A stretch of 59,622 nucleotides of DNA from Nemertoderma westbladi (lineage: Eukaryota > Animalia > Xenacoelomorpha). Positions 1,261-50,989 of the stretch are shown here, one piece after another (position 1 is the stretch's first letter; each line of letters begins with the position of its first letter). Location of the stretch: contig JAUCBJ010006787.1 of the NCBI GenBank assembly GCA_032718475.1, positions 1 through 59,622 on the forward strand. Direction: 5' to 3'. Position numbers and translations under genes: made by a program. A model generated the notes under the pieces. That model ran no database searches and was not told the DNA's origin. It saw nothing but the letters and a program-made list of their open reading frames with translations.

Positions 1261-3001
1261 AATAGTAATGGGGCTAATGTGTCACCTTTCAGTACGCCAG
1301 CCAGGATTGAGAAAAACTCAGTTTCACCATCTGGTGAGAGTACCTGCGCTTCTGTGTCACAATATAACAATCCCATGCCTGCAACAATTACTTCTGGTAT
1401 TCCATAAGCTCTTAGGATTTCAAGCATTTTACCTCTATGGATGGAGTCGAATGCCTTCTTGAAGTCCACAAAAGTCATGACTGCGGGGAGATTCTTTGAC
1501 TTAATTCCTTCAATCAGTCTCCGTAGTGCAAGTATCTGAGCTATTGTTGATCTACTTGGTCGAAATCCGTTTTGGCTCTTACGCAGTAGTTTCTCTGTGA
1601 GGCATAATCGTATATAGAGTCATTTTATTGTACATTTTGGCAGCTACCACAAGCAGACAGATCCCACGATAGTTTGTTGGTATGCCGAGGTCTCCTTTTT
1701 TGGGGAGAGGCTTTAATTAGCCTTTAGTCCAAATTGGTGGTGGCTTTTCGCCTTTTAACATCCGGTTGCAAATATTCAATAATGGTCTGTTTAGCACTCC
1801 GGTTTTCCATACCTCCACTGGGATTTCATCTAATCCACTCGCTTTATTATTGGACATGCTTTTAATGCTTCTTTGGAGTTCGGCAGGTGTGAAGTCCCCT
1901 GTTTCTATAGGTAGTGTCTTGTCATATATTTTCCTAGTAGGGCTGACATCGATGTTTGGTGGCTGCCCAAGCAAGTTGCTGAAGTGATTTTTCCACTTCC
2001 CAACACGTTCTTCAGGACTATCGGCTTTGTGGCGCCCCTTTGCGCAACTTTTGCGACCAGATACCTCATTTACAGTTTGCCAGGTAAGTCTTGATTGTTG
2101 CTGTATGTGAGCAGTTGTAATTGCTTCAGTTTTATCCTGTATGTACTTTTCCGGGCTGATGTTGTAGGCCAATTTAAGATCGTCCTTAGCTTTCTCAACC
2201 TTGTTAATGTTTTCGGTTGTTGGTTGTTCGGTTTTAACTTTGTAGGCTATCTTAAGATCTTCTCTCTTACAATTGACCTCATAGTTTTGCCATGGCACAT
2301 ACTTTGCTACATTGATACATGGTACATACTTAGGCATATGCCTCTTAGCTGATTCCTTGTGGGCTGTTATTATATTCTGGTATATTGAATTGGTGGATTG
2401 GTCTTCATCCATTGACTGAAGTGCTTCAAAGCGGTTTTGAACTTCTACTGTATAAGCATCCTTTACAGCATTGTCAGTTCTGAGTTTCTCCCAGTCATAT
2501 TTGATTTGCTTGCTTGTCCTGGGTTTGCTGGCTCTCAAACTGTGTCTGATCTCTGCAGTCACAATTCCGTGGTCCGAACCAATTAGGTTGAACGAGGTGT
2601 ATGCCTCGCAGTTGATCATGCTGTTTCTCCACTTTTTGTTTATAAGGATGTAATCCAGTTGTGCTTTGGTTCCATTAGGGTATTGAAAGGTCCATAGCTT
2701 CCCCTTACTCTTTTCGAATGTGTTGTTTGTTGGTATCAATTCACATTCTTCCATTAGGTCTAAAAGTAAGTACCCATTTCTGATAGAACTGGTGTTATAG
2801 GTGTAACCCTTGATGTCTTCTGGGCCAATTTGCGCATTCAGGTCACCAGCAATGACTTTAACATTGTGTTTCGGAATGTCCTTTATAAGTCCAGTCAGAT
2901 CTTCATAAAACTTGACTGCTTGTTCTGGCTCTGAGGCATTGGTTGGACTGTAGCAACATATAACTGTTGCCTTGGGATTCCCATCAAATGTTGCTATCAT
3001 A
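1261..3001 (-). mobile_element. RTE-like LINE fragment (APE endonuclease plus start of RT), decayed and interrupted by the LTR
   Basis: ORF 1717-3000 has APE motifs (YSPT, GDLNA, LDYIL, SDH) and the pre-RT motif KASGLDEIP; 1239-1478 has the RT motif FVDFKKAFDS. Nearly identical to 28456-30915. Confidence 0.93.
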
Positions 3002-3899
3002 ACCGTGGAATTTATAGGACAGACATTTTAGATACACCCAAACATTAAAATTGATAATAAAAATGAAATCACAGACCCCAAAACCCCCATAATGATAATT
3101 TTAGTGAGTTGGTATGAAGCCATAGTGTCAAACATAACTGACCGATTAACAGACTACAGACAGTCAGGTTTGAGCGGGAAGGTTCAAATTTTAAATGCGT
3201 TTTTCTTGAGATTTTGATTTTTGACATTTAGTATTTTTCAAAAGCTATCTCCTCCGCCATTTTTTAACCAAATTTCTCAATTTTTCTTTTAAATGGATGG
3301 TATTTGTATGTAGAATGATAAATTTTGAGCATATTTTTAAATTTGACTTTTGGCATTGGCTATTTTTCGGAAAAAATATAATTATTTGCATATTTTAAAG
3401 AAAAAAATAAAATAAAAAATTCTGCTCGAATTTTTTTATGCAATCGACCCTCCTCTATCCGAAAAATCAAGTTTCAGAAAGTTCTGATCAAAACTGCGGG
3501 AGAATATGCGTTTTTAGTGAAAAACCACATGTTCGCCATGGCCGCTAGGGGGCGCATTAATTTCACAATTTTTCAGGATGTATCTCATCTTTCACTAACT
3601 TTTGGGGTTAGGAAGAAATTTTTTCGACTAACCATTACCCATTACCCATTGCCCAGCAAACCAAATAGTAGAATGGAAATTATAAGCATGGATAAGAATG
3701 AATGGTCGCTTCTGTCCTAAAGATTGAAAGGCCCTCGGATTACCAGATAAGGGTGGTGTTTCTCGAGTGGTCGAGGAGGGGAAAGATAAATCCTTTTGGA
3801 AATCCTTTTGGTGAATGATGTCGATGAATTTGGTGAATGAGGTCGATGAATTTAGTGATATGATAATAAGAATCATCTAGACAGACAACGAGTGATACA

Positions 3900-6420
3900 A
3901 GGAAATGGAAAATCCTCAAGGAACAGGAACGCGAAAGGGAGAATGACATAATCCGACAATGTAACCTATACTGTGGTCCCCCACAGGTCGATATGCAACA
4001 ACAGTATATTGGTACAGTAAAGTTTGCTCCCGAGTCTGGGGTAATAGGCCTGGTATAGGAACAAGAGGAGGCACAACCCTCCCTTGTACAGATTAGTGCG
4101 CCAGTTACTGGGCGAATGCTAGTCTTCGACTTCTCAAAAACCCAACGGGACATTATATGGAGAAAATGCCTACCGGAAACTGTTACCAGACTACTGATGA
4201 CCGGCCAGATAATAAAAATCGTTTCAGGAATCGGCGCGGACCTCCTACGAGACTTTAGCAAAGGTTGTCTCCCCCATAACCCCGGTAGTAGATGTACAGA
4301 AATTGGTCTATACGTCGATCAAAACTAAACTCTACAGCAAGGAAATGATTGACTTAGCGGCCCCCCGGGATGACGATATTAACAAGGATGACTACAAAGT
4401 TGGAACGGGGATGATGGCATATATCCTAGGGAGGGGGGGGGGGACATGAAACCTCACTATGGGGGGAAAACAGCCACCGTCAGACAGAAATACAGCCGTA
4501 AATACCATGGCCGCCAACCTTCCCTGGGAAGACGAACTCCGGTCCCTTTGGAAGATATACGACATGAGTAAAATCCTAAGATGATACATCACCAAGCATA
4601 TTACTTACAAACTGAAATTCTAGTACTGGGCGGCTTCATATTCCAATTTATTAAGGATATGGTGTTAAAACACCCTGAATGCTTTGATATCCTAAACAAC
4701 GTGACCCGTAAACACCTCGCTTCCTCCGTCCTACACGGCTTCATGGGCTATGAAACCTTAGCACAGTGGATAGTGCTACCAGTCTGGGAAAGCAGGAGTA
4801 ATATCTGGGATATCGCGGAAAACAAAGTAGCATTAGCGTCGCAACAACTACTGCATAACGAACCAGCAGTAAACGACGCAGTCAGACATTCAGTCCATGG
4901 GCATAGGCCTAAACAGCCTCAACCCAAATACATCCTGATAAAACCAGCCCCAAAGTCAAATCCTGACAAAGGACAGTTCGTGGTACAGCGGTCGGTGCGT
5001 ACCCGTATAGCTGCTATCTGAGCCTCCCGCGGCGAGAGCTCTGACGACACGAGGCGAGGAGGGAACCGCAATCTTCTAAGAGACGTCACGGCATCTTGTT
5101 AGAAGAGGAAAACCTCCCCTCTACGAGCGTGGGCCTACACCAGTCATCTAAACGGACTCGTGGGCCAGAGGTTGAGCCACCGTGGGAACCAGAGACACAT
5201 CCTATAACCTCTATCCAGCGGACTATAACCCAGGAGTTGCCGTGGAAAGCACTGGAGATCGACATACCCACCAATTTCGATCGCCCGGAGCTACGGAGAA
5301 TAAGTGCATTACCAGAACTCGACATCTACTATGATATCCCGGAATGCTACGGATTTCTGAAGTTAATTTTCCGGTTCCAGGATATATGCCTAACGGCTCA
5401 CCGCACCAGTATAAACCGGACATCGGAGAGGATGATACCTGGGTCCCTCCCGCCGTTGTCCTCGCAAACTTTGTCTACCCACAACCGGAAATGTTGGCTG
5501 ATGGCACTGTTACAAATAGAGACTATGCGGAATCGATAAACCCCATCAATATTCGAACCACCTTCAACGAGTTTCAGGTAACGGTCACCCAACCAGTCGA
5601 GTGGGAGGAGGAGGTCCCCAACCTCCAACTTCCCATGGAGGGGGCAACGGAAAGGACCCTAAACTTCACCAAACCTTACAAGAAAAAATCCACAAGGCCA
5701 GGGAAACTCGGTTGTCTAAACTCAATAAGATCTATAAGATGCAGATGATGGAAGGGATCGCCCAGAAGGCCCCTATGGTTCGCAGAACATACTGCAAACT
5801 AAACACGTTGACACCGCTTCCCCTCGGCCACTATTGCACCATTTGCGGCAACAGGGAGAACTTCTGCAAACCTCCGGGCGAGGAACCCCATCAAAAGGGA
5901 AAACCGGAGGTCAAAATCCCTGGCGCGTGTACATGGGTGAAGTTGGGAATGGTTCCCTTCTGTTCTTGGAGCAAAATCCGGGGACACAACACCGCCTGCT
6001 GCCCGATATGCTCACTCAGTGCGAAAGTTTCGCGCTGCGAGGTCACCACTTGAAGGCTATGGCCTCAAAGAACCGAGAGTGTTGGGCCGACCTTCCGATA
6101 ACGGAACAGATACGGCGATACGAGGAACTTGAGTATCTCGCGAATCTCCATTCGACTCAAATGGAGATTGGAGAAAGCGGGTACAAATGAGCATTACGAT
6201 ATCCGACACGGCATATTCACCTTCCCCACCAACCCTTGCAACTTCGCAATGAGACGATACGATACCCCCGACCAATATCGTTTCACCTACAAAGCGCTTA
6301 TGCGCAAGGCCACACACCCTGAAGTCGGGCCGATAGCCATACAAACGTGGCTACTCCAATATATACCTGGACAACCCTGGGTTTGGTTAACCGACGGAAT
6401 GGCGACCGATTGGGAAATGA
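3900..6420 (+). pseudogene. Accessory gene copy 1: DEDDy-like 3'-5' exonuclease plus CCHC zinc knuckles (frameshifted, orphaned from gag-pol)
   Basis: Manual translation across stops/frameshifts: GVIGLV*E (ExoI position, 4038-4061), PSLVQISA, LPETVTRLL..IIKIVSGIGADL (ExoII), VVDVQ, KVGTGMMA, DMKP, HHQAYYLQTE (ExoIII), then CTICGNREN, CSWSKIRGHNTACCP, QCESFALRGHH. Same motif order as copies 2-4. Confidence 0.75.
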
Positions 6421-7404
6421 ACTATATTCCCCATCCTGGGGCCGTGATTCCCACGGACACCGGAGTCGAAACCGGATCGGCAGTTCCTGCTAGAAAGTAT
6501 CCGATGGAAAACGGATACCTCCAATCTGGAATGGGCCGATCTTCTCGAACCGGACGATATGGAGGAGGGATAGAGGCTTGTGTCCCGAGCCGCACCGAGG
6601 TTACAGGGCCCATTCCTTTCCTCGGAAGGGTTTTGGGCTTATGTGATGCTCGGAGCGAGGAGGGAAGCAAGCCATGGGGGAGCTACGGAACCCCTCGAAG
6701 CGCGGCTAGCCGATGATCGATACAATTCTTTCTCGATAAACTATAGAGATAAACTCTTGTCGAAGGAAAACAAACTCATTATCGATACTAAAGAACCTTG
6801 GCTCCATTCTATCTCGAAAACAAACTCGATAATCCTGACGATGGGAGTAAAGATCAACCCCAACTTGCCTTTCTGAACTCATTCTGTATCACACAAACTC
6901 GATAATGAGTCAGAACCCGATCACGTCATATGAACCTGGCGACACCATTGACCAGGCCGAGTCATATTATTTAGGACCATACCCTTTATATATAAAATCG
7001 TTTGCTTCTATATAGTTCCCTACGTGGAACAAGGCAATAACAAGATTTGTCGCGTTTGTGTGAAAGAAATTAATTTTATAATTACAATTTATGGATTACC
7101 TCTGGGAAAAGAGGGAATTATTGTTTGGTGTATTTAAATAACTTCAAACAGAAACCGCGTATATTTTTTGGTCAACATTTTTTTGCAGGCAACAGTACAT
7201 CATGCTGTGCAGTTATTTTTTAGGACATCAAAATATATTTTTCAAAATCCTGGCTCAAAATCTTTCTTTATGACCAATTTTTTCCAAGTTTGCCATGGGG
7301 GGAGTGAAATCGATTTTTCGCGCCTCCGTAGGCAAACGTACAAAATACACTTCATCAGGACTCTGATTTTAATAATAAAATAATTATAATATAATTATTC
7401 CCCC

Positions 7405-8140: not shown

Positions 8141-8319
8141 ATTGGACTGAGGGGGTTGGAATGAGGGCGAGATGCCCTACCCACACATAAAATAAAAATA
8201 AAATAAGCAAAATAATAAAATAAGTAGTTAGTACCAAGGTAAGCAGTAGGCATAATATGCTAGTGTAGGTAGTTACAATTATGTACGTCAGACGGGTACA
8301 ATAATGTACCAACGTACCT

Positions 8320-8722
8320 AATTTACATACGCACTACTTGTGGGCACTGATGGCGCCATGTGACGAACTGAGGGTGGGTATGTACGCATACCGTAGTTGA
8401 GGGGTACACAGTGCCGTAAAACTTGTGGGCACTGAGGGCGCAAGTGAGGAATAGGGGGGTATGTACGCATACAGTAGTAGAAGGGTACACAGTACCTTAA
8501 AACTTATGGGCACTGAGGGCGCCACATGAGGAATTGAGGGGGGGGGGGGGTATGTACGCATACCGTAGTTGAGGGGTAAACAGTACTGTAAAACTTGTGG
8601 GCACTGTGGGTGCCACATGAGGAATTGGGGGGTATGTACGCATACCGCAGTAGAAGGGTACACAGTACCGTAAAACTTGTGAGCACTGAGGGCGCCACGT
8701 GAGGAATTGAGGGGGGGTATCA
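8320..8722. repeat. ~82-bp minisatellite (about 4.5 units) in the post-pol spacer of element A
   Basis: Unit ggtatgtacgcataccgtagttgaggggtacacagtaccgtaaaacttgtgggcactgagggcgccacatgaggaattga; atgtacgcata recurs at 8380, 8461, 8552 and 8634. Confidence 0.92.
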
Positions 8723-9579
8723 TATGGCAGATAGGATAATAGCACAGGTAGGGGGGAATATAGACAGAATAAATTTAGGGTAAATTGACACATAAGGGGA
8801 ATATTTGTACGAAATAGGAAGAACAAGATAAGAAGAAGGGCCATCACTGATTTAAACTAATCAAGACCATACTTAGTTATCTCTTACCATCCTAAGCCTT
8901 TCCAAGGCACCACCAGTCTGGTGAGAGAGGAGAATTGTGATGGCGGAGAAGACATGAAACGGGCGAGACCGGGAGTGATGAGTCATATGACCTCTGAGAG
9001 GGGGGGGGGGGGGGGGGTTGGGGGGTTAAGAAACGTCATGTAGACGAATGTATAATATACATACTATAGTCAAGTACAACCTTTTTCCAATTAGCTACTG
9101 GGACTGGGGACTAATAGAGTAGAACAGCTTTAGACCGATCTCACTGACATGATGTACACATGCGTGGGACCCGATAAGAGTGTGGAGAGTGACAACGAAA
9201 ATTGGGGAATGGGGGAAGTATGGGGAGGAGGTGCTAGGGTGTGAGGAAGTGAAAGAAGTGCGAGATTCAAGTGTGGGGAGCGAGTATAGAGGAGGATGAG
9301 TCCCAAGGGACTGGTGAGACAAAGGGACAACAAAGTCCGCGAGGAAAATTGTGTGAGGAGTGAGGGCAATCATCTTAAACAGAGACACCAGATACCTTGG
9401 TACAACATAGCTCGCAGATGTACCAAGGATGGGTAGTGACAATAGACCCATGGGGGGCCGGCCTGGAAAGCCGACCCCGAGAAGAAAATTCCACCCCACA
9501 TCCGATATTAGATTGGAATCCAGCGGAATTGAAGTGCACTTATGGTTGATATGCTATCTTCTCACCGGGAAGATAGCAT

Positions 9580-10079: not shown

Positions 10080-13000
10080 CCATTAAGGAAGGAGAACAGT
10101 AGAGTTCATCTGGGAGGTCGATACGATACCTCATGAACATAGATATAACGCCGAAAGCGGAAGATGCAAGGAGGAACGAGGAGATGTTGCTATGGGCAAT
10201 CAGAGATGTCGAGTTAGGACGGACAGCAAACCGTCGATGCTTGAACTAGAGAGGGAGGGCCGGTAGGGTTGTATGTTGGGACATTGCCTTCGCCCCGGAG
10301 AAACACAGCCTGGCAAAATATAGCACACACCAGGAGGGGGTATAGAGTGTACTGGGACGAGGAGGATGAGAGAAGAAGGGATTGAAAGGGAAACTTTCCG
10401 TCGGAACATAGCTGCTGATTGATGATATGGTAGTCATGGGGAGGAGTACTCGGAAAATTCGAGAAGATTAAACTTCGATCCGGAGGAACACATCCAGACT
10501 GCAGGACATACTGTAGGCCTTTCTGCACATACTATAGGTCATGCTGGAAGAGATAGTATAAGCGATAGGGTAGCGCGAATGCTGGGATTGGACCCGGAGT
10601 TCGCAGCTTACATACCGGTGAGTAGGCAGGAACCTGCTAGGCCTATATGGTACCTGCACACAAGTATGACTATAATATGCATGGATATAACACATACCCA
10701 GTGGAAGGGGGGAGGGGGTATTGCAGATAGGCAGGTATTGCATGGGCCCCAATTGCATTGGCCTTAGATAGTGAATTTGGCTATCCTGCAAAGATTATCC
10801 GACAAACCTTAAGGGGAATAACATCAGGTGGACTCGCGGACAACCCTTTTAGTATCAAAACCTTAAAACAAAGTAGAAAAGGTGTTTATAGTCTTAAAGA
10901 CGCTAGAAGCGCCATACGAACTCAATGCTTTGAATAACATCACAACCATAACGCAGGCACTACTTTAACCAGATCAGTAGTCTGGTTAAGGTACAAATGG
11001 AGAAAGATCACTTTCTCTACTTTAGAGAAGAAAGATGCAGAGCCGGAGTTGGAGGAGATGTCGAACTTCCTTAACTACGAGGTGGAGTTGTTAACAGATC
11101 CAGTTTACAGTGAGCACAGTTTAGGCAAAGTACTGAAAACGGAATACAGCTGACCTAAACTGGAACATAGTGCCGCGAATACTCTTCCGAAAGTGAGGCA
11201 GTCGCTACCGTATGCGGCCACACAGTGGACTACAAGTCCACAGAGCCCTGGGAATATAGCCACATCGTGGCAGGGACAGAGACAAAACAATAACAGCCTT
11301 AGATATAAACCTAATGCCCCCAGTAGGCCGAGTCCAAACAACCAAAACACTAAACTGCTTGATATGAATCTAAACACGATACACGATGCGCTATATAAGG
11401 AACTCTACAATCCCGATTACAAATGTCAATTGCATAGAAGAGGGACGCATAAGACCATAAACTGTAAGCATTGGCAGGCGTTACTTAAACAAGACCAAAT
11501 AGTTTATACTGGAAAATTTGGACTATGTCACCGATGTGTGGTAGGAGGACACAAGAAGGATGAATATGAAGAACGTCCGATTAAGTATGCCGAGACTGAC
11601 AGAACTGGGGGAACTGGAGACAATGGCGATGAGCACCATGGAAATAAGGAGGAAGGGAACAGTACTACTCGGAGTAGTACCATTAAGAATGATTGGAGAA
11701 AACGGACTATCGATTACAACGCTAATGTTAGTCGATAGTGGAGCAGCGTTCACGCTAATGGAGAGTTAGGTGGCCGAGAAAATAGGATTGAAGACCAGGC
11801 CAAGTAAAATGGCGGTGATGACAATATCAAGCAAGGACGATGTCATGAAGATGAGGATGGGATGGTGTGAAATCGGAGCAATAACACTAGGGTGCAAATT
11901 ACGGGGCTACCATCGAACCCATCCAAATAATGGAGTCGATTAAAATCAACGCCAGGTGACCTACAAAGATCGAGATCGAAAAATATCGGTAACTCAATGG
12001 CATCAACTTCTCCGTGCCCGAACTAGATGTCCCGAAAGTCACTCTCATACTCGGCATGGATTGTCTGACGGCCCATGAGAGGCTACAAACCATATTTGGC
12101 GACGTCAGAGAGTGAGACCTGGTGGCCATTCTGACACCATTCGGATGGACTCTCAGTGGCCCAATAAAGACGAGGATCCCGTTTAGCATATCTGAATCTT
12201 CAGGGTGCATGTTCGCGGGAACGATGAGAGAGATGAAGGATGAAGGGGCGGAGGAACAACTCAAAAGGCTGATACAGCATGATTTTGAGGGGTTAAAGGA
12301 GACCAGGGTAGGAACCTTGGTAGAGGACAAACAGGCGCAGGAGAGCATCAGGAGGAAGTGTGACGGGGGGGGGGGGGGGGGGTGGAATACCATAGGAATG
12401 GTATGGAAGGAGCCGAAGGTACCCCTACCAAACAATCCAAAACTAATCCCAACTAACATCCAAACTACCAAACCATTGGCATCTGCCAAGACAAATGGCA
12501 AAAGCTTAAACAATTACCTACTAGAAGGCCCCAATATTTACAACTCGGTGATAGAAGTTCCTGTTGAGGTTTAGAAATGGAAAACACTCCTTCATGTGCG
12601 ACATCGAGGGCATGTTTAACCAAGTGCGGGTAACTGAGGAGGATAGCGATAGTCAACGCTTCCTTTGGTACAACAGTGACGAAGAACTGTCAGATATACC
12701 AATGTACAAGATGGTGTTACAGAATATGGGGGCCAACTCATCCTCAATCACCACAACTACGGCCATAAGAGATACAGTGGAGGGCAATGAGGGGGAGTAT
12801 AGCAGAGAGGCGATTGATATGATTCCACATGGGTTCTACGTGGATGATGTGATGGGTTCTTGCAACTCCATTGAGGAGTTCATCGAGATGGGGCATGAAG
12901 TTTGTGACATCCTGAAGAAATCGGGATTCAACTTGACGAAGTTCCAGTCAAACTCAAAGGAATTCATGGAAGCCATAGAGGATAAACAACCGGAGGTAAA

Positions 13001-14236
13001 ATCGGATAAACCTATGGTGGTAAAGGAACAGATTATGGTGGACAGAAGAGTAGAATCACAGCAGAAAGCACTAGGGATCGTATGGAACCGGGAGACAGAT
13101 GAGTTGGAATATCAACTGAGTCAGGAGGGTGCCGGGGTCCATACCAAGCGAGGCTATGTATCATACATAGCGATGATTTACGATCCACTAGTGTTAGCAT
13201 CCCCATTGTTAGTCACGGGGAAGCAGATACTTAAGAAGGTTTACAAGATCAAAGATGAATGGTAGGCGGAAGTCCCGATAGAGATATGTAAACAGTGGGA
13301 GAAATTGACAGGGGCTTAGAAGATATGGGAACTTACTACAGTATGCCGCGTGTATACTTCCTGGATGGAGACATGATTGAATTGGAACTGCATATGTTTT
13401 CTGATGTGCTTTATTTGGTACAGTGGAAGGGGAGTCATAAACCCAGACTAGCGTTCAGTAAAGCGAGGTCGACGTCACCAGATTCAGCATCAGTACCGAA
13501 ACTCGAGCTAACGGATGTGAGACTAGGAGTGAGAGCGACAGCATACTTGGTGGATACGATGCCAATTATAGTGGAATCACACTACTGGATGGATTCCATG
13601 ATAGTGTTGGGATGGTTGCATAACGAAAATACCCGATATCCCATATTCGTAGTGAATCGAGTGAACGAGATAAGAGCAACAACAGACTTGGACAAGTGGA
13701 AACGCGTACAACGCCACGCTTTCTCGAGAAAGCAAGAGTTGTGGCAGCATGGTTCACACTTCCTCAATGACAGGTCGAAGTGGCCATTGATGAGGAAAGT
13801 AGTTCCAACCAGAGAGGAAGTAATAGTAGAGGATGAGGGAACCGAATCGGAGGGGGGAGAAATGTTTAGCCAGTTATTGAGGGAGATTAATGAGGCACCA
13901 CCACGATCTAAGACGATAGAGTTGCGTGATAATCCAACAGATAGGTTACTCAGTTACAGCTCGAGTTGGTATAAGATGAAGAAGCTAGTGGCATACCTGA
14001 GGGCTTATGGAGAATTCCTTAGGGGGGCTGGTATGGGCATCAAGATAACACCCACCATTGATCTGGAAGGGGTGGCTAAAACCATGATACGATACGAACA
14101 AGGGAAGGGATACGGAGACAAAGTTGACCGTATTAGGCAACGCCTTCGTCCGGACAGCGAGATAGATGGAAAGATCAGATCCGTGGAGGTTAGAATTGGA
14201 GGAAAGATTGTGCAAAAGATAGGAAGACCTACATGA
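10080..14236 (+). pseudogene. Decayed Bel/Pao gag-pol (element B, family 2); most of the integrase deleted
   Basis: Gag knuckle remnants (CQLHRRGTHKTINC, LCHRCVVGGH), protease LVDSGA, TPFGW, RT SLNNYLLEGP / CDIEGMFNQV / FYVDD, YDPL, RNase H HMFSD..PKLEL..WMDS, then a jump to the C-terminal DGKIRSVEV. Many stops and frameshifts. Confidence 0.92.
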
Positions 14237-15219
14237 GGTAGGTAGGAGGGCACGTCCTAATTAGTTGAGTCGCGAGGGCGAGATGCCCTTCCCACACACA
14301 AAAACAAAACATAAAAATAATAAAAATAAAAACATAAATACGTACCAAGGTATATATAATTTAATTTAGGTAGGCATTATGTATGTCTGATGGGTATGAA
14401 TGTACCAATGTACATAATATTTGGTGTAGGTAGTTATAATCACGTACGTGGGATGGGTATGAATGAACCAAGGTACATAATTTACATACGCACCAAAATG
14501 CCAGGTCAATGGGACCAATATCAGTATATGATATGTACAGTAGTAGAATTAGAAGTGTACATAGTACCATAGTGAGGATTAGAAGGGTATATATTTTATG
14601 ATGGGCACAATATGCCAACGTAAGTAATAAATACCAAAATGCCAGGTCAATGGGACCAATAATAGTGCGTAATACGTACTACAGTAGGCACTGAGGGCAC
14701 CACGTTAGGATTTGAAGGGGGTGGGTAAGTAGGCGTAGTAGAATAGATTGTGTGTGTGTAGGCCGCACGAACTAGACTACTGTAGTGCATAGCCCATAGT
14801 ACAGACTTCGAGTATTGTTACAGAGCCAGAAAGCTGTCTGGTAGGAAGCTAGTACAACAATAAGAACATTGTAGCTAGTCTTTTTTGTAAACAAGTAGTG
14901 ATGAATTACTTATGTAAGTAATTGGGTAATAGGTAGAGTAATAGCATATAATTTGAAGAATATAGCATAATAGTAAAAATAAGAAAAATTGTGTCAACCA
15001 GGGTACTAGAAAATTCTAGAAACATAAATAAAAGTAATGGACAAAATTATAAATTAGGAGTAAAATTGGCACATAAGGGGAATATTTGTACAAAACATTG
15101 GCAAAAAGCAGATAGGAGGTAGGTCATCACTGATTTAAACTAATTAAAACCATACTTAGTTATCTCTAGCCCTACTGAGCCTTTGTAATGCACCACCAGT
15201 CTGGTGAGAGAGGAGAATC

Positions 15220-17378
15220 GTGATGGTGGAGAAACTAGTGAAGAAGAGGAAGTCGGAGAGGAGCGGGAAGGAACTACTAGTGGATTTCACGTTGAGACAT
15301 CCTCAGAATAAGACAAGGGAATACTACAAACGACTTCTGAAGAGTCAGAAAGCGCACGTGCTGCAAGATCAGTTTAGGGAGATGCACAAGCGACGACTGG
15401 TCACGATCTACGGGATGCCGTCGTTGGATAATGCGATCGATGAGTATCTTAGCTACATTGTAAAGGGGGACGAGGGTACTTTCGGCATACCAAAGTATAT
15501 GAGGGAACCACCTAGAAAGGAATGGAGTCAGTTTGTAGATTCTGTGGAGAGGGAGGATATATGGTCCTGGACGACGAGGGGACTGTAAAGGATGATGAAG
15601 GGCTGAGGAGGGGGTCAGGAGGGTCGGGTAGAAATATATTGCTGCATTTAGTGGTGCTGAACGGAGATATTTTTCTATTTGACATAGGGACCTACGGTAA
15701 GAAGAGCGAGCCAAAGTTGAACCATCTACCAGATGTGGTGCAGAAGCTAAGGTCAAAGACTATGATGAAGGTTGGATTGGCGATACGCGATGACACAGAG
15801 AGGATTATTGGACCAGGCACCCCGAATCTTCTGAACATGCGGGTAGTCTACATGGCTATGACGAAACCGGATGGATTGGGATTGGTGGACAACACAGGAC
15901 AATACGGAGCTGTGGCAAAGGGTCAGTTGATGGGACTCGTGTGCCACAAGCCGATGGAGTGGAACAAGTTCCAAGAGGAATACGGGGCAGAACTCAAGTG
16001 GGGAGCGAGACCGGGAAAGGAAGAGTTATATCACTTCCGGAAGGGGGCGATAAAGATATATCAGAAGAGATATGTCCTACAGGAGGACTGGATAATGATA
16101 GCACCCGAGGCAGAAGGGCGAGTCGGTGTTTTACAATACCTGACACCAGGTGGACAGAGAAGTAGACACACCGTACAGATGATGGAAGAAATGTGAGGCG
16201 GATAGAGAGGAGGAAAGAAAGCTAGAGGAAGTCACCAGGAAAGAGAGGAGGGAGGCAGCAGGTAGAGAGGCAGATATAAGGGGAGGGGAATATGATTTGA
16301 GGCCCAAGATTTGGATGAGTTGAGACCTCAGGTACATTCCGGCTAGGGGATGAGGTGGATTGGATGGAAGAGACACCAATACAGTCTACATCTGGACTGC
16401 AGGGAATGCCGATACATGGGGGGTCCGAGGGCGACTTTGGCAGGAAGAGGCCAAGAGCGATGGAGGAGTGGAGCGTTACAGGCGAGTACCAGGCCGGGAA
16501 GGGACATGGTGGATCAACAGGGATCCCGGGTTTGGGGCCGCTCGTGGCAGAGGAAGTAGAGGGGGACGAGATTGGGGAGATGCCGCCGATAGAGAGGATC
16601 GGCCAGGCGGACACGGTCTGGGTGGGCGGGAGAGTGGTGACAGCCAGCGGGGTGAGAGCCTTGGACACCCGGCAAGCGAGCCTTGGAGCACAGGGAGCCG
16701 GTGACGAACTTCCCAGCGAACATGATTCGGCTAGGTAAGCAACTGGGTACATCACCACAGTAGTGTTTGGGGAGACGATGCCGAGGGAGGAGGACATTGA
16801 CATGGGTAGGGAGGACAAGGTTGAAATGTTCACCTATTAGTGGTTCCATAGACCCAGGAGGCTATCCGGAGCCAAGGACGAGTTAGGGCGAGAGACAGTG
16901 ATATATGGTTGCGAGTACTGTGGGAGACTAACCCATCAGCAGAAGAATGGTCTGTATCGCTACCAGAAGTGGGCGACATGCCTATATTGCCACAGGTCTA
17001 CCCATTGGATGGGGGGCGTACCCAAGGCTGCACCACAGGTATTCGAAGTGTAAGTTTAGGGGGCATTTTGAGCATCAGTGCGACTGGATGGATAATGAGG
17101 AGAAGATCCATATTTACGAGGACTGGGTCAATGTCAGGGTCATTACTAGGCAAAGGATGAAGGCCCAGGAGTTCCCGTGGGGTTTTTTCAACATCAATCT
17201 ACCGGCCCATCTGAAGATTACTAAGAGGAGACTAGCATTCATATATCAGGAGGTAATGACAGCGGCATCACATGGTGGTGTTATTAACACCCAAAGATAT
17301 CTAGACATATGGTCGCCAGAGAACATGATGAAATTCAGGAAATTTCTGGTGGAGCATGTGCCGCGACGCGTGAGATGA
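15220..17378 (+). pseudogene. Accessory gene copy 2: DEDDy-like exonuclease plus tandem CCHC knuckles, downstream of element B pol
   Basis: ORF 15522-16196: MVLDDEG (ExoI DxE), LPDVVQKLRSKTMMKVGLAIRDD (ExoII), CHKP, YQKRYVLQED (ExoIII). Region 16905-17090 across frameshifts: CEYCGRLTH, CLYCHRSTH, YPRLHHRYSKCKFRGHFEHQC, then IYEDW...PWGFF. Confidence 0.8.
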
Positions 17379-18163
17379 AAATGATCTTGTAGGACTCTAC
17401 CATAGGGAAGCAGGAGGGGCACTCAGTGGGACCACCTGCGAAACGATATCGTAAATTGATAATGCCTGCACCCAAGGATCCAACAATGGGGCTTGGAAAG
17501 ACGGTATCAGCGCAGAGGAGTAGCCACAAGATCAAACAGGAGGGAAGAAAACGACCAAGGCAGGACGATGATAGGGGCAAGGAGATGATATGGTTTCCGG
17601 AGGGTACGGGAGAAGCACTCTAGAATTCTAGAACTGGTTACGTACGGTAGCCATACGGTGCCCCATACATACCACAAATAACTGTTGAAAGGTCCAGTAG
17701 TATACCACTTACAGGATCCTAGTAACGATGTATCTTACCGTAAGATCTAGTAGTACGGGCTCGTACAGTATCTGACAATAAATCCCAGTCCAGGGAGTCT
17801 AAATAAACAGATACAAATACGCGAACAACTACTGGCGAGGAACAGAGCCTGGTGTCTATTCTAATACGTGGGCGAGTCAAATGCCCGGCGAACTAGACAA
17901 AACAGGATACCCGTCCTCTAACCGGTGAGGCAGATGTACAGTCTACGGTGACAGACCAAACTCATGAGGAAACAATACCCGCGCAGCGAATCCTAACTAT
18001 CGCTAACAGACCCAAATACCGTAAACTTGCCGCGGTGTGATTTATATGGTTTATATAGGAGCTAGTGGATTAACAGACTACCGTAACAATACTGACCATA
18101 ATAAATCAGTCAAAAGGGGGTTGTACCTAAAGTAACGATACTGTCACTCAGGCAAAACAACAG

Positions 18164-19004
18164 TGTAAAAGCTTTGAAGAACATCTGATGGCCTTAGTTA
18201 TAAGAACGTAAATCTATTAACTTGTCATTTGACTTAACTCATTTCATATCGCATTTCATATAACTGAACACATACTGACTGTTCACCGCACTGTTTTAAT
18301 GCTGTTTTATATTGTGTTAATTGCTGTTTATATTGTGTTAATTGCTGTTTATATTAATGGATGTTATATTTGGAGAATACTGATAAATAATCGTAAACCC
18401 CTCAATCTTCTTGATACTGAGGTAAGTGGAGGAAGAGTCTACCGGTAGCAACTGTGACTCAAATTATAGTGGTTTTTTGTGTGAATTAAATGCTATTTCA
18501 TAATCCCTATGTGTGTCAGTTGCAATTCTCCCTTATATATGATAAAAATTAGTGACGGTTGGCAAATTAGTGTAAATTAGTGTGAAGTAGTGTGAAGTAG
18601 TATGAAGTCATATGAAGGTTAATAAAGCATCTCCTAAAGAATGCGCTATTTACGAAACTCCGTGGCCATCTAGTTGTGATTAGTGTAAGTCATAACTCTG
18701 TTTTTATACTTAAAGCGCATCGTCCTAAAGGAACTGTTAATATTTCCCCGAAAGTAAATATAGTTGTCAGAGATTATATAGTAGCAATCAATCGAATAAT
18801 ACAAAGTGGCCTACACCGCAATAACTTCCTAGGGAACCCGAATCCAGTCTCCCACACCGTGGGTCATACGCCGCGCACGGACTGGCTTCGGCGGATGTAA
18901 CTTCAGTACACCAGGTAATTGGTAAGGGCTAAAGTCGATTCATAATCAAAAGGACATTTTTAAAATTGGCAGGTTAAACTGCTAAAGGTCTAAAAGCGCG
19001 AACA
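18164..19004 (+). mobile_element. 5' LTR of a truncated family-1 Bel/Pao element (U3 internally deleted)
   Basis: Starts TGTAAAAGCTTT and ends ggcaggttaaactgctaaaggtctaaaagcgcgaACA, matching the reverse complement of LTR 51001-52185. Confidence 0.85.
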
Positions 19005-20101
19005 TTAATAGATTTTCATTCTTATTGCCCAGTAGGCAATAAACCCAAAACGTACTGGTAGGACGGTAAACTGGAGGCCTGATCCGAACTGGTACTTACA
19101 GGTACAACAGTATTAGTTCGATTGTGATAATTATATATACCGGTAGGTCTTAATATTTAATCGGGGACTGCAGCCCTGGTTTTTATTAGGATTTTACTTA
19201 TTTCTGTCAGTTTTATTTATCTGTAAGTGTAATATTGAGCAGAAGGCGTGTAAGCCTGCTCAGATTGTATAAATAATTTGTAGGCCGGATTGTTGTCTAA
19301 CTGTTGTTAGGTCTGAGGCGATTGCAGTGTATGTAGAGTGTCTGTCCGATAAAGTGCTAGTTAGGAAGGTGGAGGCATCCAGTGCTGTAAGGTAAATCCC
19401 CCACGAAAGAATAAGTCGTACTACGTAGTTAGAACGCTTACTAACTAACCATTTCGGAGATTGCATATACTGTGGTTTATTTAGGCTTGACAGTAGTCTG
19501 CCAGCATTTGGTCTGTGTTTTATTTGAATAGTATGTACGGGTAGCGTAATAATTATTATTCAGAGTTTATGCAAGTATTTGCAACCTACATCTCCCCAAG
19601 TTTATTCCTTACAGTAATTATGCTTGTTATGCATACTGTTATAGTTAAAGTAACCCCGGTACTACTTCAGGACTGCTTGGCGTAGGACAGACTGGTGATT
19701 TTGTGCTCCGGTCACTCCAGCAGATACCGTGGTTCTTTTGGATGTTCACGTATATTTAACTGCTAGTTATATGTTGTATAAGTACTTGTACCTAATTTAG
19801 GGTTTAGAGTACAGTGCTTTCCTGAAAGTGATTTAGTGTGTAGGCAGTATATTTGTGTTGTAACGTGGTTAATAGGTCTGTTTGCTCTGGTAGGCTTCGA
19901 TAATTAACCTCTAGGTATAGGACACTCCGGGTACATAATGTAGTGCTTATAGTGTAAGACTATAAGCCGTCAGACATTTCCTTATCTGGACAACGCAACG
20001 TACTTAATACTACTTTATTGGTTTCAAATGCCGTAATTTCCTGTCAGATTGTAAGAACCAGAAATTCTAACTCCTTGTTAGTCTGGTTTGTAAATTTCTT
20101 G
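19005..20101 (+). mobile_element. 5' leader of the truncated family-1 element
   Basis: Colinear with the reverse complement of about 49480-51000 (e.g. tgtgctccggtcactccagcagat, gtacttgtacctaatttagggtt); cut off by the TTAA insertion at 20102. Confidence 0.85.
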
Positions 20102-20105
20102 TTAA

Positions 20106-21935
20106 CCCTATTAGTACCGGGCTATAAAATGTTGTACAAATACTGGGGGGAGGGGGGGGGGGTCATATTGACCCCCCCCCCCCCCCCCCTCTAAAATCTA
20201 CAAATATTTACGAAAACGTCTGATTTTTTGTTTGTACGTAGGTGTCACTTGTCTGGATCCGACCGAAAAAAAAAAATTTCGAAAAAATGTACTGGGGTGG
20301 TTATATTGCAGAACCAAAATTACAAGTAGTGCACAATTTTCACAAAATTTGAAAGTTACATTTTCGGCTAATTATTTTTCAATACAGGTTTTCTGGGGTG
20401 CAAAATACATTGGAAAATATTTAAAAATGATATGATTACTATAAATGGCTGTTTAGTTCTCCCTGCGTAGGAAAAAAATGAAAAAAACAAGTAACCAGCA
20501 CTTTTCAGTTAGAACACAAAATTTTTATTTCACTTATATGATGCTAAAAATTCACATTTTCAGCTTTTCGAGGGCGCTGATTCTAATGGAATACATTTCT
20601 AATATGCCAGATCATTGCTACTTGTATTTTTCGGCGTAATTTGGCAAATTTTGGTGCTAGCACCAAATTTCGTACCCATCACCAAAAAGTACAAGTTTGC
20701 GATGTCCAGTGCTGTTTTTATTTATTCCATCGGATTCAGGACCCTCATAAACCCGTATAACGCAAGAAACAAGGTGATACTATCTAATTATCAATTTGCA
20801 TATTTTCCAAAATTTGGTGCGAAAAATACAAGTTTGAGAACTCTTATGAAATTTTTACTGATTCCATTGAATTCAGAACCATCACAAACCCGTATAACGC
20901 AAGAAACAAGGTGACACAATCAATTGATATATTTGATGGTTTTCAAAATTTGGTGCTAGCACCACATTTTGCACCCACATCCGAAAAATACAAGTTCGAG
21001 ATGTCTAGTTCGATAATTATATTTTCCATTGAATTCAGAACGGCCATAAACCTCTAAAACGCAAGAAATAAATTGTCAAAAGCAATTTTATCTATTGAAT
21101 GGATTTTCAAAATTTCGTGCTAGCACCGAAATTTGCACACAGCACCGAAAAATACAAGTTTGATACGCTTGGTGCAACTCGTATATATTTCATCGAATCC
21201 AGAACCCCAAAAAACCCCAATTGCGTAAAAAACAAGTTTCAAACAATCAATTTACAAAATTGACTTATTTCAAAATTTGGTGCTGGCACCAAAATTTGGC
21301 ACCCACCGAAAAAAACAAGTTTGAAATTTCTAAATCAATTTATATGAATTCCATCAAATTTCTAACACCAAAAAACCGGTGTAAATCAAAAATAGAGATG
21401 TTACAATTCATATTTAATGAAATGTTCCACCCAGGTTCCACCTTGGTGTAGTGGTTGCATTGAATTCACATCTCTTGTAGGTCGTGGGTTCGATCCTCAC
21501 ATGGACCAGGGCAGTTTTCGTTTCGGCACGAATGCTTTAAAGGGACCAGCCAGGGCGCATCTCTGCTTTGCATCCTTAAGTGGTAGCTAAATGAGTACTA
21601 GAGTTTCCTCTGGGGAGTAAAGTTCTGGGGGGACCGCACTGGAAATAAGTCGTCAGACTTTGTGCGTAATCCCTGGCCTAGTGGCCGAAGAAAATTTACT
21701 TTTACTTTACTTTTATGTAATTTTCAAAAAACGTCTCAAAAAAAGTGCCAAAAGTAGGGTTAAAAAATGGTGCTATAACTCGAAAAGTACCCAATATTTT
21801 TGAAAACGGTTTTCACTACTAGGAAGACAATAGATTTTTAGGAAAAGTCATAAAATTTCAGATTCCCAACTGCGTTTGTTTCAGAATTATAATAAAACCA
21901 CATCATATTGACCCCCCCCCCCGGGTTTAATAGGG
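20106..21935. mobile_element. Non-autonomous piggyBac-like DNA transposon
   Basis: TTAA on both flanks (20102-20105, 21936-21939); termini ccctattagtaccggg / ccgggtttaataggg; subterminal tcatattgacccc motif at both ends; internal degenerate tandem repeats at about 20640-21400; no transposase ORF. Confidence 0.8.
21434..21715 (+). mobile_element. tRNA-derived SINE nested in the piggyBac-like element
   Basis: Pol III A box TGGTGTAGTGG (21444-21454), B box GGTTCGATCC (21487-21496), about 200-bp body and a (TTTAC)n tail. Confidence 0.75.
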
Positions 21936-25555: not shown

Positions 25556-26014
25556 CTAAGAACACTCGCGGGCTAAGAATTCACCCAACAAATGTACTTG
25601 TTCAGAGCTGTGAATTCTACATTTCTTCTACATTGAATGTACAGCAGCAGGGCATGAATCCTTGCATGGCCAGTTTTCCATTGGCACCAACAAACAGCTA
25701 TAAGGTAGAATAATAAATGCGGTGTAACTGGTGTAATATCGCTGGAGACTTAAACGCTTGTAACTAAAGATTGAAAGCAAAAATAAAAATTCTGGCTCAC
25801 CCAGTCAGTGGTCGGGAGGTGAAACTATCTCTGTTTCAAATTTCATGCAATCTCATTACGATTTGTAAAAAAATTTAGGGGGGGGGGGGGCGTGTCACTG
25901 AATTACGACACTATCTGGGACATGGTGTATACAATATAATTATATTTAGATTGTAATATACTCTACGAACAATTACATTTTGTTACGTTTAAATTTTTTA
26001 TACTACAGTAGCTA

Positions 26015-26296
26015 GTTTTTGTTTCTTTTTTTTAAATGTTCTAGAACTAACACTAGCTAATTTGTTAATTATTTTGATATTTTATTGTATGTTATCTTTG
26101 TATAATTTTTTTATACTAGCTAGTTTTTTTTTTTTTAATGTTCTAGAACTAGCACTGGCTAATTTGTAAATTATTTTAATTTTTTATTGTATATTATGTT
26201 TGTATACATTTTTTATACTAGCTAGTTTTTGTTTCTTTCTTTTTAATTGTTCTAGAACTAGCACTAGCTAATTTGTTAATTATTTTAATTTTTTAT
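26015..26296. repeat. ~95-100-bp AT-rich tandem repeat, 3 units
   Basis: agctagttttt...tgttctagaacta(g/a)cact(a/g)gctaatttgt recurs three times. Confidence 0.85.
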
Positions 26297-26528
26297 GTGG
26301 ATCGGATTGATTAATTAGGATAATCAATTAAACCCTAATTAGGAGTCGTAAGACACCTATTAGGGTTTAATTGTACTAATTAATTGATGACACCTGTCAA
26401 TTAGGGTCTAATTAGCCTAATTAGGAGGTGTCACCCAGACAGTCTGGCACCAATGACACCCAATGACACCCTATGGGTGTTAATAGGGTGTCATATGACA
26501 CCCAATGGGTGTCAGTGGGGTCCAACTG

Positions 26529-28100: not shown

Positions 28101-28455
28101 TTTGCCCTAGTAAGAGGGTCTATGCAGCTACAGGTGGCACCTCCCTTATGCTGCATGGAGGTGGCAAGTTTTCTTGATCAACGACCTAGAATACCTGACC
28201 TGCCTGAATTATTCAGGGCGATCTTAACATTAATATTCTTATTCAAAAGGCACCTACTTCCAAGGAACTACTCTCTAAAATAGACACGCTTGGCCTAACA
28301 ACCCACAACAAAACTGAACCGACACTGTACAGTAAGACATCTGCAAACCTTATAGACATCGTAATATTAAATTTTGTACAGCATGTAATAAAATAATGTA
28401 ATTTATTCCCATGTTTTTACTCAGATCATGAATACACAATACTTACACTTACATC

Positions 28456-30915
28456 TACTACTACTACTTCTAGGTCGAGCGAACTCGGACAGTGGAAATG
28501 AGATCCTTCCAGGCTTCCCGATTCTCCATAGTTGTCGCAAATTCGTTATCAGTTCAGTATCCCTTTCAAGTTGATATGTTATGGCCGGTCGTCCACGACT
28601 ACGCTTTCCATGAGTTGGTTGCCAGAAAAGTAGATCTGGTATGACCTCGTCTTTACTTCGCCAACAGTGCCCATTGAATCTTAATCTGCGTTTGCGGAGG
28701 GTGGTTGATACAGGTGGTATTGTACCATAAAGCTCGGCGTTTGTCATGTGTTGTCTCCAGCTGATGTTTAGGGCTGCCCTTAGTAGTCTTGTGTAGCAAC
28801 CATCAATTCGTTGTTCAAGTGATTTAGTCAGTGTCCAGGTCTCACCCCCATATAAAAATACACTTTCCACTGTAGCTCGAAAGAACTTAGTCTTCAGGTG
28901 CCTGGAGAGATCTGATTTCCAGATGGTATCCATTTTTGATAGAGCTACCCAAGCCTTTGCTTTCCTAACTTCTATGTCCTTTTTGCTACTCTCTATCCAT
29001 GATCCAAGGTACTGGAAGTCATCGACCTTCCTTAGTTGATTATTATCAATGGTTGTCAAGTTTCCATCAACATTAAAGGTCATGAATTCGGTCTTTGTAG
29101 CATTTATATGCAATCCAACCTCCCTAGCAGCCCTCTCCACTCCATCCAGCAGAAGCTGTGCATCTGCTAGGGCATTAGAGAGCAGGGCGATGTCATTCGC
29201 AAAGTCGGTGTCTGTGACTGTAGTTGCCGGATAACTACTACTTCTGCGTTCTTGAAGTGTGAATCCCAGGTCTTCACCCTTTGTGGCCGTCCTCATTGCG
29301 TAATCCAGCACAATTACAAATAGTAATGGTGCTAATGTGTCACCTTGAGGTACGCCAGCCAGGATTGAGAAAAACTCAGTTTCACCATCTGGTGAGAGTA
29401 CCTGCGCTTCTGTGTCACAATATAACAATCCAATGCCAGCAACAATTACTTCTGGTATTCCATAAGCTCGTAGGATTTCAAGCATTTTACCTCTATGGAT
29501 GGAGTCGAATGCCTTCTTGAAGTCCACAAAAGTCATGACAGCGGGGAGATTCTTTGACTTAATTCCTTCAATCAGTCTCCGTAGTGCAAGTATCTGAGCT
29601 ATTGTTGATCTACTTGGTCGAAATCCGTTTTGGCTCTTACGCAGTAGTTTCTCTATGTGAGGCCTAATCCTATATAGAAACATTTTATTGTATATTTTGG
29701 CAGCTACCACAAGCAGACATCCCACGATAGTTTGTTGGTATGCCGAGGTCTCCTTTCTTGGGGAGAGGCTTTAGTTGAGCTTTAGTCCAAATTAGTGGTG
29801 GCTTTTCCCCTTTTAACATCCGGTTGCAAACATTCAATAATGGTCTGTTTAGCACTCCGGTTTTCCATACCTCCGCTGGGATTTCATCTAATCCACTCGC
29901 TTTATTATTGGACATGCTTTTAATGCTTCTTTGGAGTTCGGCAGGTGTGAAGTCCCCTGTTTCTATAGGTAGTGTCTTGTCATATATTTTCTTTGTAGGG
30001 CTGACCTCGATGTTTGGTGGCTGCCCAAGCAAGTTGCTGAAGTGATTTTTCCACTTCCCAACACGTTCTGCAGGACTATCGGCTTTGAGGCGCCCCTTTG
30101 CACAACTTTTCCGACCAGATACCTCATTTACACTTTGCCAGGTAAGTCTTGATTGTTGCTGTATGTGAGCAGTTGTAATTGCTTCAGTTTTATCCTGTAT
30201 GTACTTTTCCTGGCTGATGTTGTAGGCCAATTTAAGATCGTCCTTAGCTTTCTTAACCTTGTTAATGTTTTCGGTTGTTGGTTGTTCGGTTTTAACTTTG
30301 TAGGCTATCTTAAGATCTTCTCTCTTACAAGTAACCTCAGAGTTTTGCCATGATACATATTGTTTTCGTTTGGGTTTCTGGGGGATATGCCTCTTAGCTG
30401 ATTCCTTGTGGGCTGTTATTATATTCTGGTATATTGAATTGGTGGATTGGTCTTCATCCATTGACTGAAGTGCTTCAAAGCGGTTTTGAACTTCTACTGT
30501 ATAAGCATCCTTTACAGCATTGTCAGTTCTGAGTTTTTCCCAGTCATATTTGATTTGCTTGCTTGTCCTGGGTTTGCTGGCTCTCAAGCTGGGTCTGATC
30601 TCTGCAGTCACAATTCTGTGGTCCGAACCAATTAGGTTGAACGAGTTGTATGCCTCGCAGTTGATCATGCTGTTTCTCCACTTTTTGTTTATGAGGATGT
30701 TGAAAGGTCCATAGCTTCCCCTTACTCTTTTCGAATGTGTTGTTTGTTGGTATCAATTCACATTCTTCCATTAGGTCTAAAAGTAAGTACCCATTTCTGT
30801 TAGAACTGGTGTTATAGGTGTAACCCTTGATGTCTTCTGGGCCAATTTGGGCATTCAGGTCACCAGCAATGACTTTAACATTGTCTTTCGGAATGTCCTT
30901 TATAAGTCCAGTCAG
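28456..30915 (-). mobile_element. 5'-truncated RTE-like LINE (EN-RT pseudogene) with (AGT)n tail
   Basis: ORFs 30544-30936, 29685-30668 and 28421-29725 join across small deletions; QNGFRPSRS, FVDFKKAFDS, GVPQGD, DFAND (FADD with D>N), FQYLGS; 3' tail gaagtagtagtagtag. Confidence 0.95.
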
Positions 30916-30919
30916 TTCT

Positions 30920-35972: not shown

Positions 35973-35982
35973 CCGCTCCCTA
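35973..35982 (-). other. Polypurine tract
   Basis: Sense strand TAGGGAGCGG directly precedes the TGTAAAAGC start of the 3' LTR. Confidence 0.7.
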
Positions 35983-36005
35983 ATATATGTAAATACTCTA
36001 AACAG

Positions 36006-38769: not shown

Positions 38770-39048
38770 TTAGGTGTCTCCATCGTCCGTATCATGTAAA
38801 TCGATAGGATGGCCGGTAGTTAAGAAGTCCATATACGTACCATTACGATTCGTATAGCGAGCGGTGAATTTTCGATAGTCCAATTCACGCGCAAGTTGCT
38901 CTTGGGACATCGGCGGTTCGATATAACGACCATCGTCCTCCGTAATGGTTGGATCGGCTTCACCGCGTATTAAGCTATCCACAAATGCTTGTAAAGGTAG
39001 AGTATATCGCTCCCTAATACCAAGATCATCTTCTATCAACTCCGTCAT
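38770..39048 (-). CDS. 92-aa ORF, possibly the N-terminus of the accessory gene
   Basis: ATG-initiated, same strand and upstream of copy 3, protein-like composition; no recognisable motif. Confidence 0.3.
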   Translation of the reverse strand: MTELIEDDLGIRERYTLPLQAFVDSLIRGEADPTITEDDGRYIEPPMSQEQLARELDYRKFTARYTNRNGTYMDFLTTGHPIDLHDTDDGDT

Positions 39049-50938: not shown

Positions 50939-50989
50939 GTTTACCGGTTGACGGTACTTTCAACTTTATTGCTTACTGCAATAAAGACA

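Follow-up and report, generated by a model that had tools for sequence, protein, structure and literature searches.

The gene at positions 15220–17378 of a 59,622-nucleotide (nt) stretch of Nemertoderma westbladi DNA (contig JAUCBJ010006787.1; the whole stretch is called the window hereafter) belongs to a real multi-copy gene family. It is about evenly balanced whether the gene is a decayed copy of an accessory gene of a Bel/Pao family, with a predicted product that joins a DEDDy-type exonuclease domain, three Cys/His zinc knuckles and, at its C terminus, one further small domain. We call it the B gene, after element B, a decayed old Bel/Pao retrotransposon whose gag knuckle region (11154–11738) and pol (12116–14236) precede it on the + strand. 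As a first description made from the letters alone (the sequence-only reading) had reported, the gene lies downstream of pol and on the same strand; it starts 984 bp past the pol stop. Its coding sequence is scattered over five frame pieces or more. A Pfam scan of all open frames of at least 110 amino acids (aa), together with self-comparison, identified the window as transposon-rich eukaryotic DNA.

The exonuclease-like part of the B gene is a single open reading frame (ORF) of 226 aa on the + strand (15516–16193, called the B ORF). It is preceded by an N-terminal region of 122 aa in frame 1 (15220–15585), whose first codons fall within a segment shared with the 5′ copy of a repeat described below, and downstream of it comes a charged, Gly-rich linker (16195–16909) within which the frame changes. 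The ExoI motif is VLDDEG at 15564–15581, and the overlapping MVLDDE (15561–15578) provides the D-x-E that follows a hydrophobic strand. The ExoII motif, LPDVVQKLRSKTMMKVGLAIRDD at 15726–15794, is of the LP..KVG..IRDD type. Within it, KVGLAIRDD lies 69 residues past ExoI, which places its Asp in the K-h-h-x5-D context and in the interval of 55–75 residues after ExoI that characterize an ExoII Asp; both hmmsearch and hhalign aligned this segment on the ExoII motif of RNase D. WGARP at 15999–16013 corresponds to W..RP, a signature located ahead of ExoIII in RNase D enzymes, and an ExoIII-like YVLQED is found at 16071–16088. All four motifs share the same frame, in the order and spacing of DEDDy enzymes, and the ExoI, ExoII and ExoIII strings quoted in the sequence-only reading are thus all present in one open frame.

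We evaluated this arrangement with regular expressions. The ordered and spaced ExoI-ExoII-ExoIII chain occurred in 54 of 200,000 shuffles of the ORF and in none of 200,000 once W..RP was included. Among 2,358 six-frame windows of the full 59.6 kb, the chain was present in one, namely the B ORF itself. Because the ExoII pattern was redrawn from our own RNase D consensus after a first version had missed the ORF, this is a post hoc test, and its figures indicate no more than an order of magnitude. Of the 30 ESM Atlas clusters closest to the B ORF, 25 carry PF01612 (score 0.94–0.95, 173 of 256 features shared, recognition 3110); by the tool's own figures, one third of shuffled proteins also obtain ten family-consistent matches. 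When RNase D domains of 31 diverse proteobacterial sequences served as the profile, the best local match of the B ORF was the ExoII block in register, and the same held for a second reading frame of the window (3900–5018); neither match was significant. With hhalign against 79 enterobacterial RNase D sequences, residues 135–171 fell on RNase D residues 102–148, i.e. on the W..RP block (P 0.03), and the scores obtained with that profile were, like those of the diverse one, not significant. The order strand-strand-strand-helix-strand in the first 90 residues of a low-confidence AlphaFold model is that expected of a DEDD core.

The second exonuclease-like frame, also on the + strand, is more decayed, being one frame with seven in-frame stops between 3900 and 5018. 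It carries an ExoII-like IIKIVSGIGADL and a YYLQTE motif, and Cys-rich remnants are present downstream, at 5835–6002. An open piece of 89 aa within it (4059–4325) reached a PF01612-bearing ESM Atlas cluster (0.90, 176 shared features) in which 17% of the members have PF01612 and the commonest taxon is Rotifera. That two frames devoid of detectable mutual similarity both land on PF01612 clusters may be regarded as independent support for the assignment. We noted that the decayed coding stretch extends over 3900–6713, mostly in one frame, and that an AT-rich stretch and a fragment of a long interspersed nuclear element (LINE) lie upstream, the element context having been lost. No copy of the repeat found upstream of the B gene was detected upstream of the 3900–5018 ORF.

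On these grounds we consider it likely that the B ORF holds a DEDD-derived exonuclease-type domain, its catalytic activity being a prediction. A series of results weighs against this view. YVLQED reads as Y-x3-E or Y-x4-D, with a Glu in place of the Asp of the Y-x3-D expected for ExoIII. In Pfam, which includes PF01612 (DNA_pol_A_exo1), even an E limit of 10 brought up nothing for 15516–16193 or 15537–16193, and there was no match for the read-through 3900–5018 ORF. NCBIfam was likewise empty for the B ORF, and the PDB yielded no sequence match, its only row being a nucleoporin with an E of 1.4. In a phmmer search over 1.84 billion representative proteins, a single low-complexity tandem-repeat protein was retrieved. 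Word-indexed searches, which covered targets of 0.55–1.75 times the query length, were empty for the B ORF, for the first part of ORF3 of another element of the window (element A, ORF3a) and for the read-through 3900–5018 ORF, and scans of metagenome and viral contigs yielded nothing. Our own hidden Markov model (HMM) of the 31 proteobacterial RNase D domains gave the B ORF −2.0 bits, which is not significant. AlphaFold produced no usable fold model: its predicted local distance difference test (pLDDT) score was 37.6 with the single sequence (the model mentioned above) and 29.2 with a two-row alignment. With the former, Foldseek found no match at E 0.001 or better, and its weak top rows were unrelated proteins; the outcome of that search is meaningless because the models are too poor. 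Finally, Smith–Waterman comparison of the B ORF with the 3900–5018 ORF did not rise above shuffles, and neither did that of the B gene with ORF3 of element A. The DEDDy assignment is thus partly supported: the motif order and spacing, the PF01612 neighbours in the ESM Atlas, the second ORF and the location of the best local alignments of our own profiles at the expected motifs speak for it, and Pfam, NCBIfam, PDB, phmmer and the non-significant scores of those profiles do not.

More generally, in Smith–Waterman comparisons of B with the 3900–5018 ORF, element A ORF3, element A gag and the frames at 5000–6800, z was never above 2.4 relative to shuffles. Searches with tblastx and tblastn returned nothing significant, and MAFFT put the motifs of the untrimmed pair out of register. 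The proposed paralogy of the B gene with the 3900–5018 ORF and with element A ORF3 is therefore a matter of shared landmarks only.

Downstream of the linker, three Cys/His knuckle units are present at 16910–17081 (+ strand), as the sequence-only reading had noticed. Two are of the C-X2-C-X4-H form (CEYCGRLTH at 16910–16936 and CLYCHRSTH at 16979–17005), and the third is a C-X4-H-X4-C remnant (CKFRGHFEHQC, 17049–17081). A frameshift separates units 2 and 3; measured against the C-X2-C-X4-H-X4-C spacing of a retroviral-type zinc knuckle, the first two units have no final Cys, or their Cys was lost at the frameshift. Pfam zf-CCHC_4 matched the knuckle region with an E of 0.021 and 14.9 bits, below the cut-off of 27. 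The C-terminal domain (17082–17378, + strand, ~100 aa) ends with MKFRKFL and further residues up to the stop, after which a purine-rich run resembling a polypurine tract (PPT) is found at ~17405–17420.

The distal part of the B gene has a counterpart in element A, a complete Bel/Pao element of ~17.35 kb on the − strand (34832–52185). Element A has long terminal repeats (LTRs) of 1.15 kb that are 95.6% identical and have TG..CA ends, and it is flanked by a 5-bp target-site duplication. Its open frames include ORF0, a gag-protease (gag-PR) frame of 738 aa (DUF1759), a pol of 1340 aa (Peptidase_A17, Integrase_H2C2 and DUF5641) and ORF3; the gag frame carries three knuckles at 45395–45577. ORF3 (36009–37794, − strand; 354 + 249 aa with one frame change) lies downstream of pol and its stop is 37 nt ahead of the PPT and the 3′ LTR, and hence it is a true env-position gene.

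Five collinear landmarks are common to element A ORF3 and the B gene, namely a Tyr/IAP motif, the three knuckles and a KF(V)RKFL motif. In element A, YPFVD (Y-x3-D) is followed by IAPWAEGR, whose counterpart in B is IAPEAEGR; a six-frame reading of the window contains the IAP.AEGR pattern exactly twice, compared with 0.0 expected from 200 shuffles. IAP.AEGR precedes the first knuckle by 807 nt in A and by 812 nt in B, the two further knuckles are similarly spaced, and KFVRKFL (A) or KFRKFL (B) follows 88–93 residues past the third knuckle. From these landmarks, we take the C-terminal two-thirds of the B gene to be homologous to element A ORF3.

The exonuclease part is a different matter. In the stretch between pol and ORF3 of element A, where it would be expected, minus-strand open frames do not exceed 97 aa, and only a weak, collinear, non-significant remnant is present. 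Gag and pol of this element are nevertheless open, and its LTRs are young. Transposition in the A lineage thus seems to have gone on with no working nuclease part; this speaks against catalysis being essential there and counts against our interpretation.

Further features of element A were recorded along the way. Its pol-to-ORF3 spacer is 2.7 kb long, AT-rich and devoid of long ORFs. A 97-aa open piece in it (38770–39063, − strand) resembles the N-terminal part of the B gene in short strings (FVDS.., RYIEPP), a tentative kinship since the spacing does not match. ORF0 (47056–48729, − strand, 558 aa) overlaps the start of the gag frame, its second half is rich in Ala, Glu and Lys, and it has no Pfam match.

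Other copies of the B gene were found in contigs from two DNA runs of the same organism, aligned at 80% identity or more. In each run, ~17–42 contigs per site cover the B ORF region, mostly 5–20% diverged and with an excess of transitions. At the two in-frame stops of the linker (16736–16738 and 16838–16840), every aligned contig differs from the window; hence, both stops are peculiar to the window copy, and elsewhere in the genome the reading frame continues open into the knuckles. Contigs of other copies also span the junction between the LTR end and the gene (15155–15422 and 15011–15269). In at least two other copies, 21–24 different letters replace 15244–15550 (joints 15243→15551 and 15246→15551) so that the exonuclease-like frame begins immediately behind them; one of these replacements holds an in-frame ATG.

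The sequence-only reading had placed the gene in the env position. This holds for the related ORF3 of element A, in the order pol-ORF3-3′ LTR, and not for element B itself, in which pol, with its stop at 14236, is separated from the gene by a 960-bp LTR-like repeat with a motif resembling a primer-binding site (PBS). The repeat (14266–15199, TG...CCA ends) and its TGG-initiated PBS-like motif (15202–15218) together occupy 14266–15218 on the + strand, directly upstream of the gene. A second copy of the repeat (8157–8916) with its PBS-like motif (8157–8935 in all, + strand) lies 5′ of the decayed gag-pol of element B. That gag-pol spans 11154–14236, from the gag knuckle region to a pol with reverse transcriptase (RVT_1) and Peptidase_A17 matches in Pfam; the integrase is missing and the pol C terminus is kept. 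Both repeat copies start with TG, end with CCA and have a purine run ahead of them; 3 nt further on, an identical TGG-initiated 17-mer is found, which sits within a 27-mer perfectly conserved between the copies. This layout is the anatomy of an LTR followed by a putative PBS. The homology of the two copies stops at 8960/15243, a few codons past a shared ATG. The 5′ copy contains a tandem array (8336–8717; 82–91-bp units, 72–93% identical) that is not in the 3′ copy.

Up to 18400, no match to the LTR-like repeat was found downstream of the B gene, which also weighs against placing the gene between pol and a 3′ LTR. We considered the LTR at 18367–19043 as the 3′ LTR of element B and rejected it: a leader like that behind the 5′ LTR of element A comes next (19083–20105 compared with 50787–49476), and so this LTR starts another A-like element. 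The partial 5′ LTR and leader of that A-family element (18367–20105, + orientation) come directly after the B gene, and the boundary past the gene is marked by a very high contig depth from 17622 on. Thus, here and in other copies, the B gene is the first ORF behind an LTR and PBS, not a gene between pol and a 3′ LTR. The arrangement fits equally well an internally deleted derivative, a complementary DNA (cDNA) of a subgenomic RNA whose leader includes the first gag codons, or recombination between elements that share LTRs.

Bel/Pao elements such as Tas, Cer7 and Roo carry an env-like ORF3. Like these, the third ORF of element A is located between pol and the 3′ LTR; in contrast, the product considered here bears predicted nucleic-acid-binding knuckles, and features of a signal peptide, transmembrane segment or fusion protein were neither sought nor noticed in it. 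Compared with cellular PF01612 enzymes (RNase D, Rrp6/EXOSC10, WRN, Mut-7, Nibbler and EXD1/2), the B ORF has the same order and approximate spacing of ExoI, ExoII, W-x2-R-P and the ExoIII Tyr. Unlike them, it has no profile match, a Gly-rich insert after ExoI, a Glu at the last acidic position and a spacer between W..RP and the Tyr that is 12 residues longer, and no HRDC domain was detected in it.

The closest parallel comes from bdelloid rotifers. Rodriguez et al. (2017; PMC5408684) describe an RNase D-like DEDDy ORF3 in the Ty3/gypsy-type elements Juno1/2 and Vesta2/5, and also in Athena/Terminon elements. The same paper reports 'strong homology' of these ORF3s to DEDDy exonucleases, with the motif altered to DEED, a Cys-His-Cys zinc motif in the ORF3 of Vesta2/5 and the existence of inactive DEDD derivatives among factors of the PIWI-interacting RNA (piRNA) pathway (PMC5408684). 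The B gene resembles the Juno/Vesta ORF3s in being a DEDDy-type extra ORF tied to an LTR retrotransposon and in having one catalytic acid altered (DEED there, D-E-D-E here). It differs in its carrier, which is Bel/Pao rather than Ty3/gypsy-type or Penelope-like, this comparison being one of descriptions only. It also differs from the rotifer ORF3s, as described there, in that Pfam does not detect its domain and in the three Gag-type knuckles behind that domain. A hint of kinship with the rotifer ORF3s may be seen in the ESM Atlas cluster reached by the 4059–4325 piece, in which Rotifera is the commonest taxon. Full-text literature searches found no case of a Bel/Pao element with a DEDD exonuclease, with the proviso that the phrase 'Bel Pao' may miss the spelling with a slash. 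The B gene is thus probably a Bel/Pao variant of the DEDDy-ORF3 theme of rotifer Juno/Vesta elements, and likely an accessory nuclease gene of a type hitherto published for Gypsy-type elements of rotifers alone.

If the protein is as we propose, its three Gag-like knuckles would hold it on the single-stranded RNA or cDNA of the element inside the particle, where the N-terminal RNase D/WRN-like 3′–5′ nuclease domain would act on 3′ ends, trimming or degrading them. Candidate substrates would be the element's own RNA, primer ends, cDNA or host small RNAs. The copy of the B gene behind the LTR and PBS would likely be an internally deleted or subgenomic-RNA-derived form, or the outcome of recombination between elements sharing LTRs, rather than a plain gag-pol-ORF3 element. 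Roles in countering piRNAs, in primer processing or in proofreading, as put forward in the sequence-only reading, are speculation.

Three other explanations were weighed against this proposal. The B gene might code for a real accessory or Gag-like retrotransposon protein with knuckles whose N-terminal half adopts another fold and shows exonuclease motifs by coincidence. Every profile, sequence and structure test was negative or unusable, the motif test was adjusted post hoc, the ESM Atlas also gives ten family-consistent matches to one third of shuffled proteins, and three knuckles are the normal pattern of a Bel/Pao Gag, as at 45395–45577 in element A. However, coincidence would have to account for two mutually dissimilar ORFs that both fall on PF01612 clusters with at least 170 shared features, for four ordered motifs, including W..RP, that appeared in none of 200,000 shuffles, and for best local profile alignments located at the homologous motifs; we therefore regard it as rather unlikely. 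Another explanation concerns the carrier rather than the domain. The gene begins 5 nt past the PBS-like motif behind the LTR-like repeat, the same LTR and PBS stand 5′ of the gag of element B, the pol of element B stops ~30 nt short of the repeat, as expected if a 3′ LTR came next, and other copies retain the junction between the LTR end and the gene, with at least two of them joining 15243 or 15246 to the start of the exonuclease-like frame. On that account, the B gene would not be an env-position ORF3 of element B; a separate non-autonomous LTR element, with LTRs in common with the Bel/Pao family, could have it as its first and perhaps sole ORF and abut element B through nested or tandem insertion or through LTR recombination. 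We view this as possible but somewhat doubtful: in intact element A the collinear ORF3 is located behind pol and ahead of the 3′ LTR, the same layout would arise if a gag-pol-ORF3 element were copied with an internal deletion or from a spliced RNA, and downstream of the gene no further LTR can be seen.

A last explanation accepts the DEDD origin and holds that the domain is catalytically dead and acts as an RNA-binding module only, in the manner of Maelstrom, EXD1 and Egalitarian. The ExoI Asp and Glu, the ExoII Asp and the Tyr are all retained even in the decayed B copy, and a Glu, too, can ligate the metal, as a matter of general chemistry; we thus judge loss of catalysis unlikely. It would agree with the Glu, or a one-residue shift, at ExoIII and with the closure of the exonuclease region in element A while its knuckle and C-terminal parts are open. 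The inactive DEDD derivatives among piRNA factors and the altered DEED motif of the rotifer ORF3s (PMC5408684) point the same way.

The remainder of the window is occupied by LINE fragments and further pieces of A-like LTRs. A LINE coding for an apurinic-type endonuclease and a reverse transcriptase is present in two copies on the − strand (1242–3027 and 28424–30919), 94% identical over 1.65 kb, and its first ORF has a weak MATH-domain match (E 0.0064). At the start of the window, an A-family LTR piece (1–1157) is 74–81% identical to the LTRs of element A. The AT-rich stretch between the elements contains tandem arrays at 20645–21377 (units of ~137–164 bp) and 25974–26333 (units of ~102–109 bp). 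No tRNA genes were found in the window as possible primers for the PBS-like motif.

Coming back to the proposed exonuclease gene, the window offers a natural contrast: one lineage retains the nuclease motifs, and the other, apparently recently active, has only the knuckle tail. A more far-reaching scenario, which we consider distinctly improbable, is that a Bel/Pao lineage independently gained, as its third gene, a knuckle-tethered DEDDy exonuclease that would act on the 3′ ends of small RNAs or cDNA to evade silencing, and that some sublineages, such as that of element A, subsequently lost the nuclease and retained only the RNA-binding tail. This would represent a second or third capture of this class of exonuclease by LTR retroelements, outside the Gypsy-type elements of rotifers. 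The evidence is confined to decayed, orphan sequences. If the exonuclease assignment is correct, DEDDy cargo would be recurrent across unrelated superfamilies of LTR retroelements rather than an oddity of rotifers, and its role in the retroelement life cycle, be it 3′-end processing, primer handling or counter-defence against small RNAs, would become a general question.

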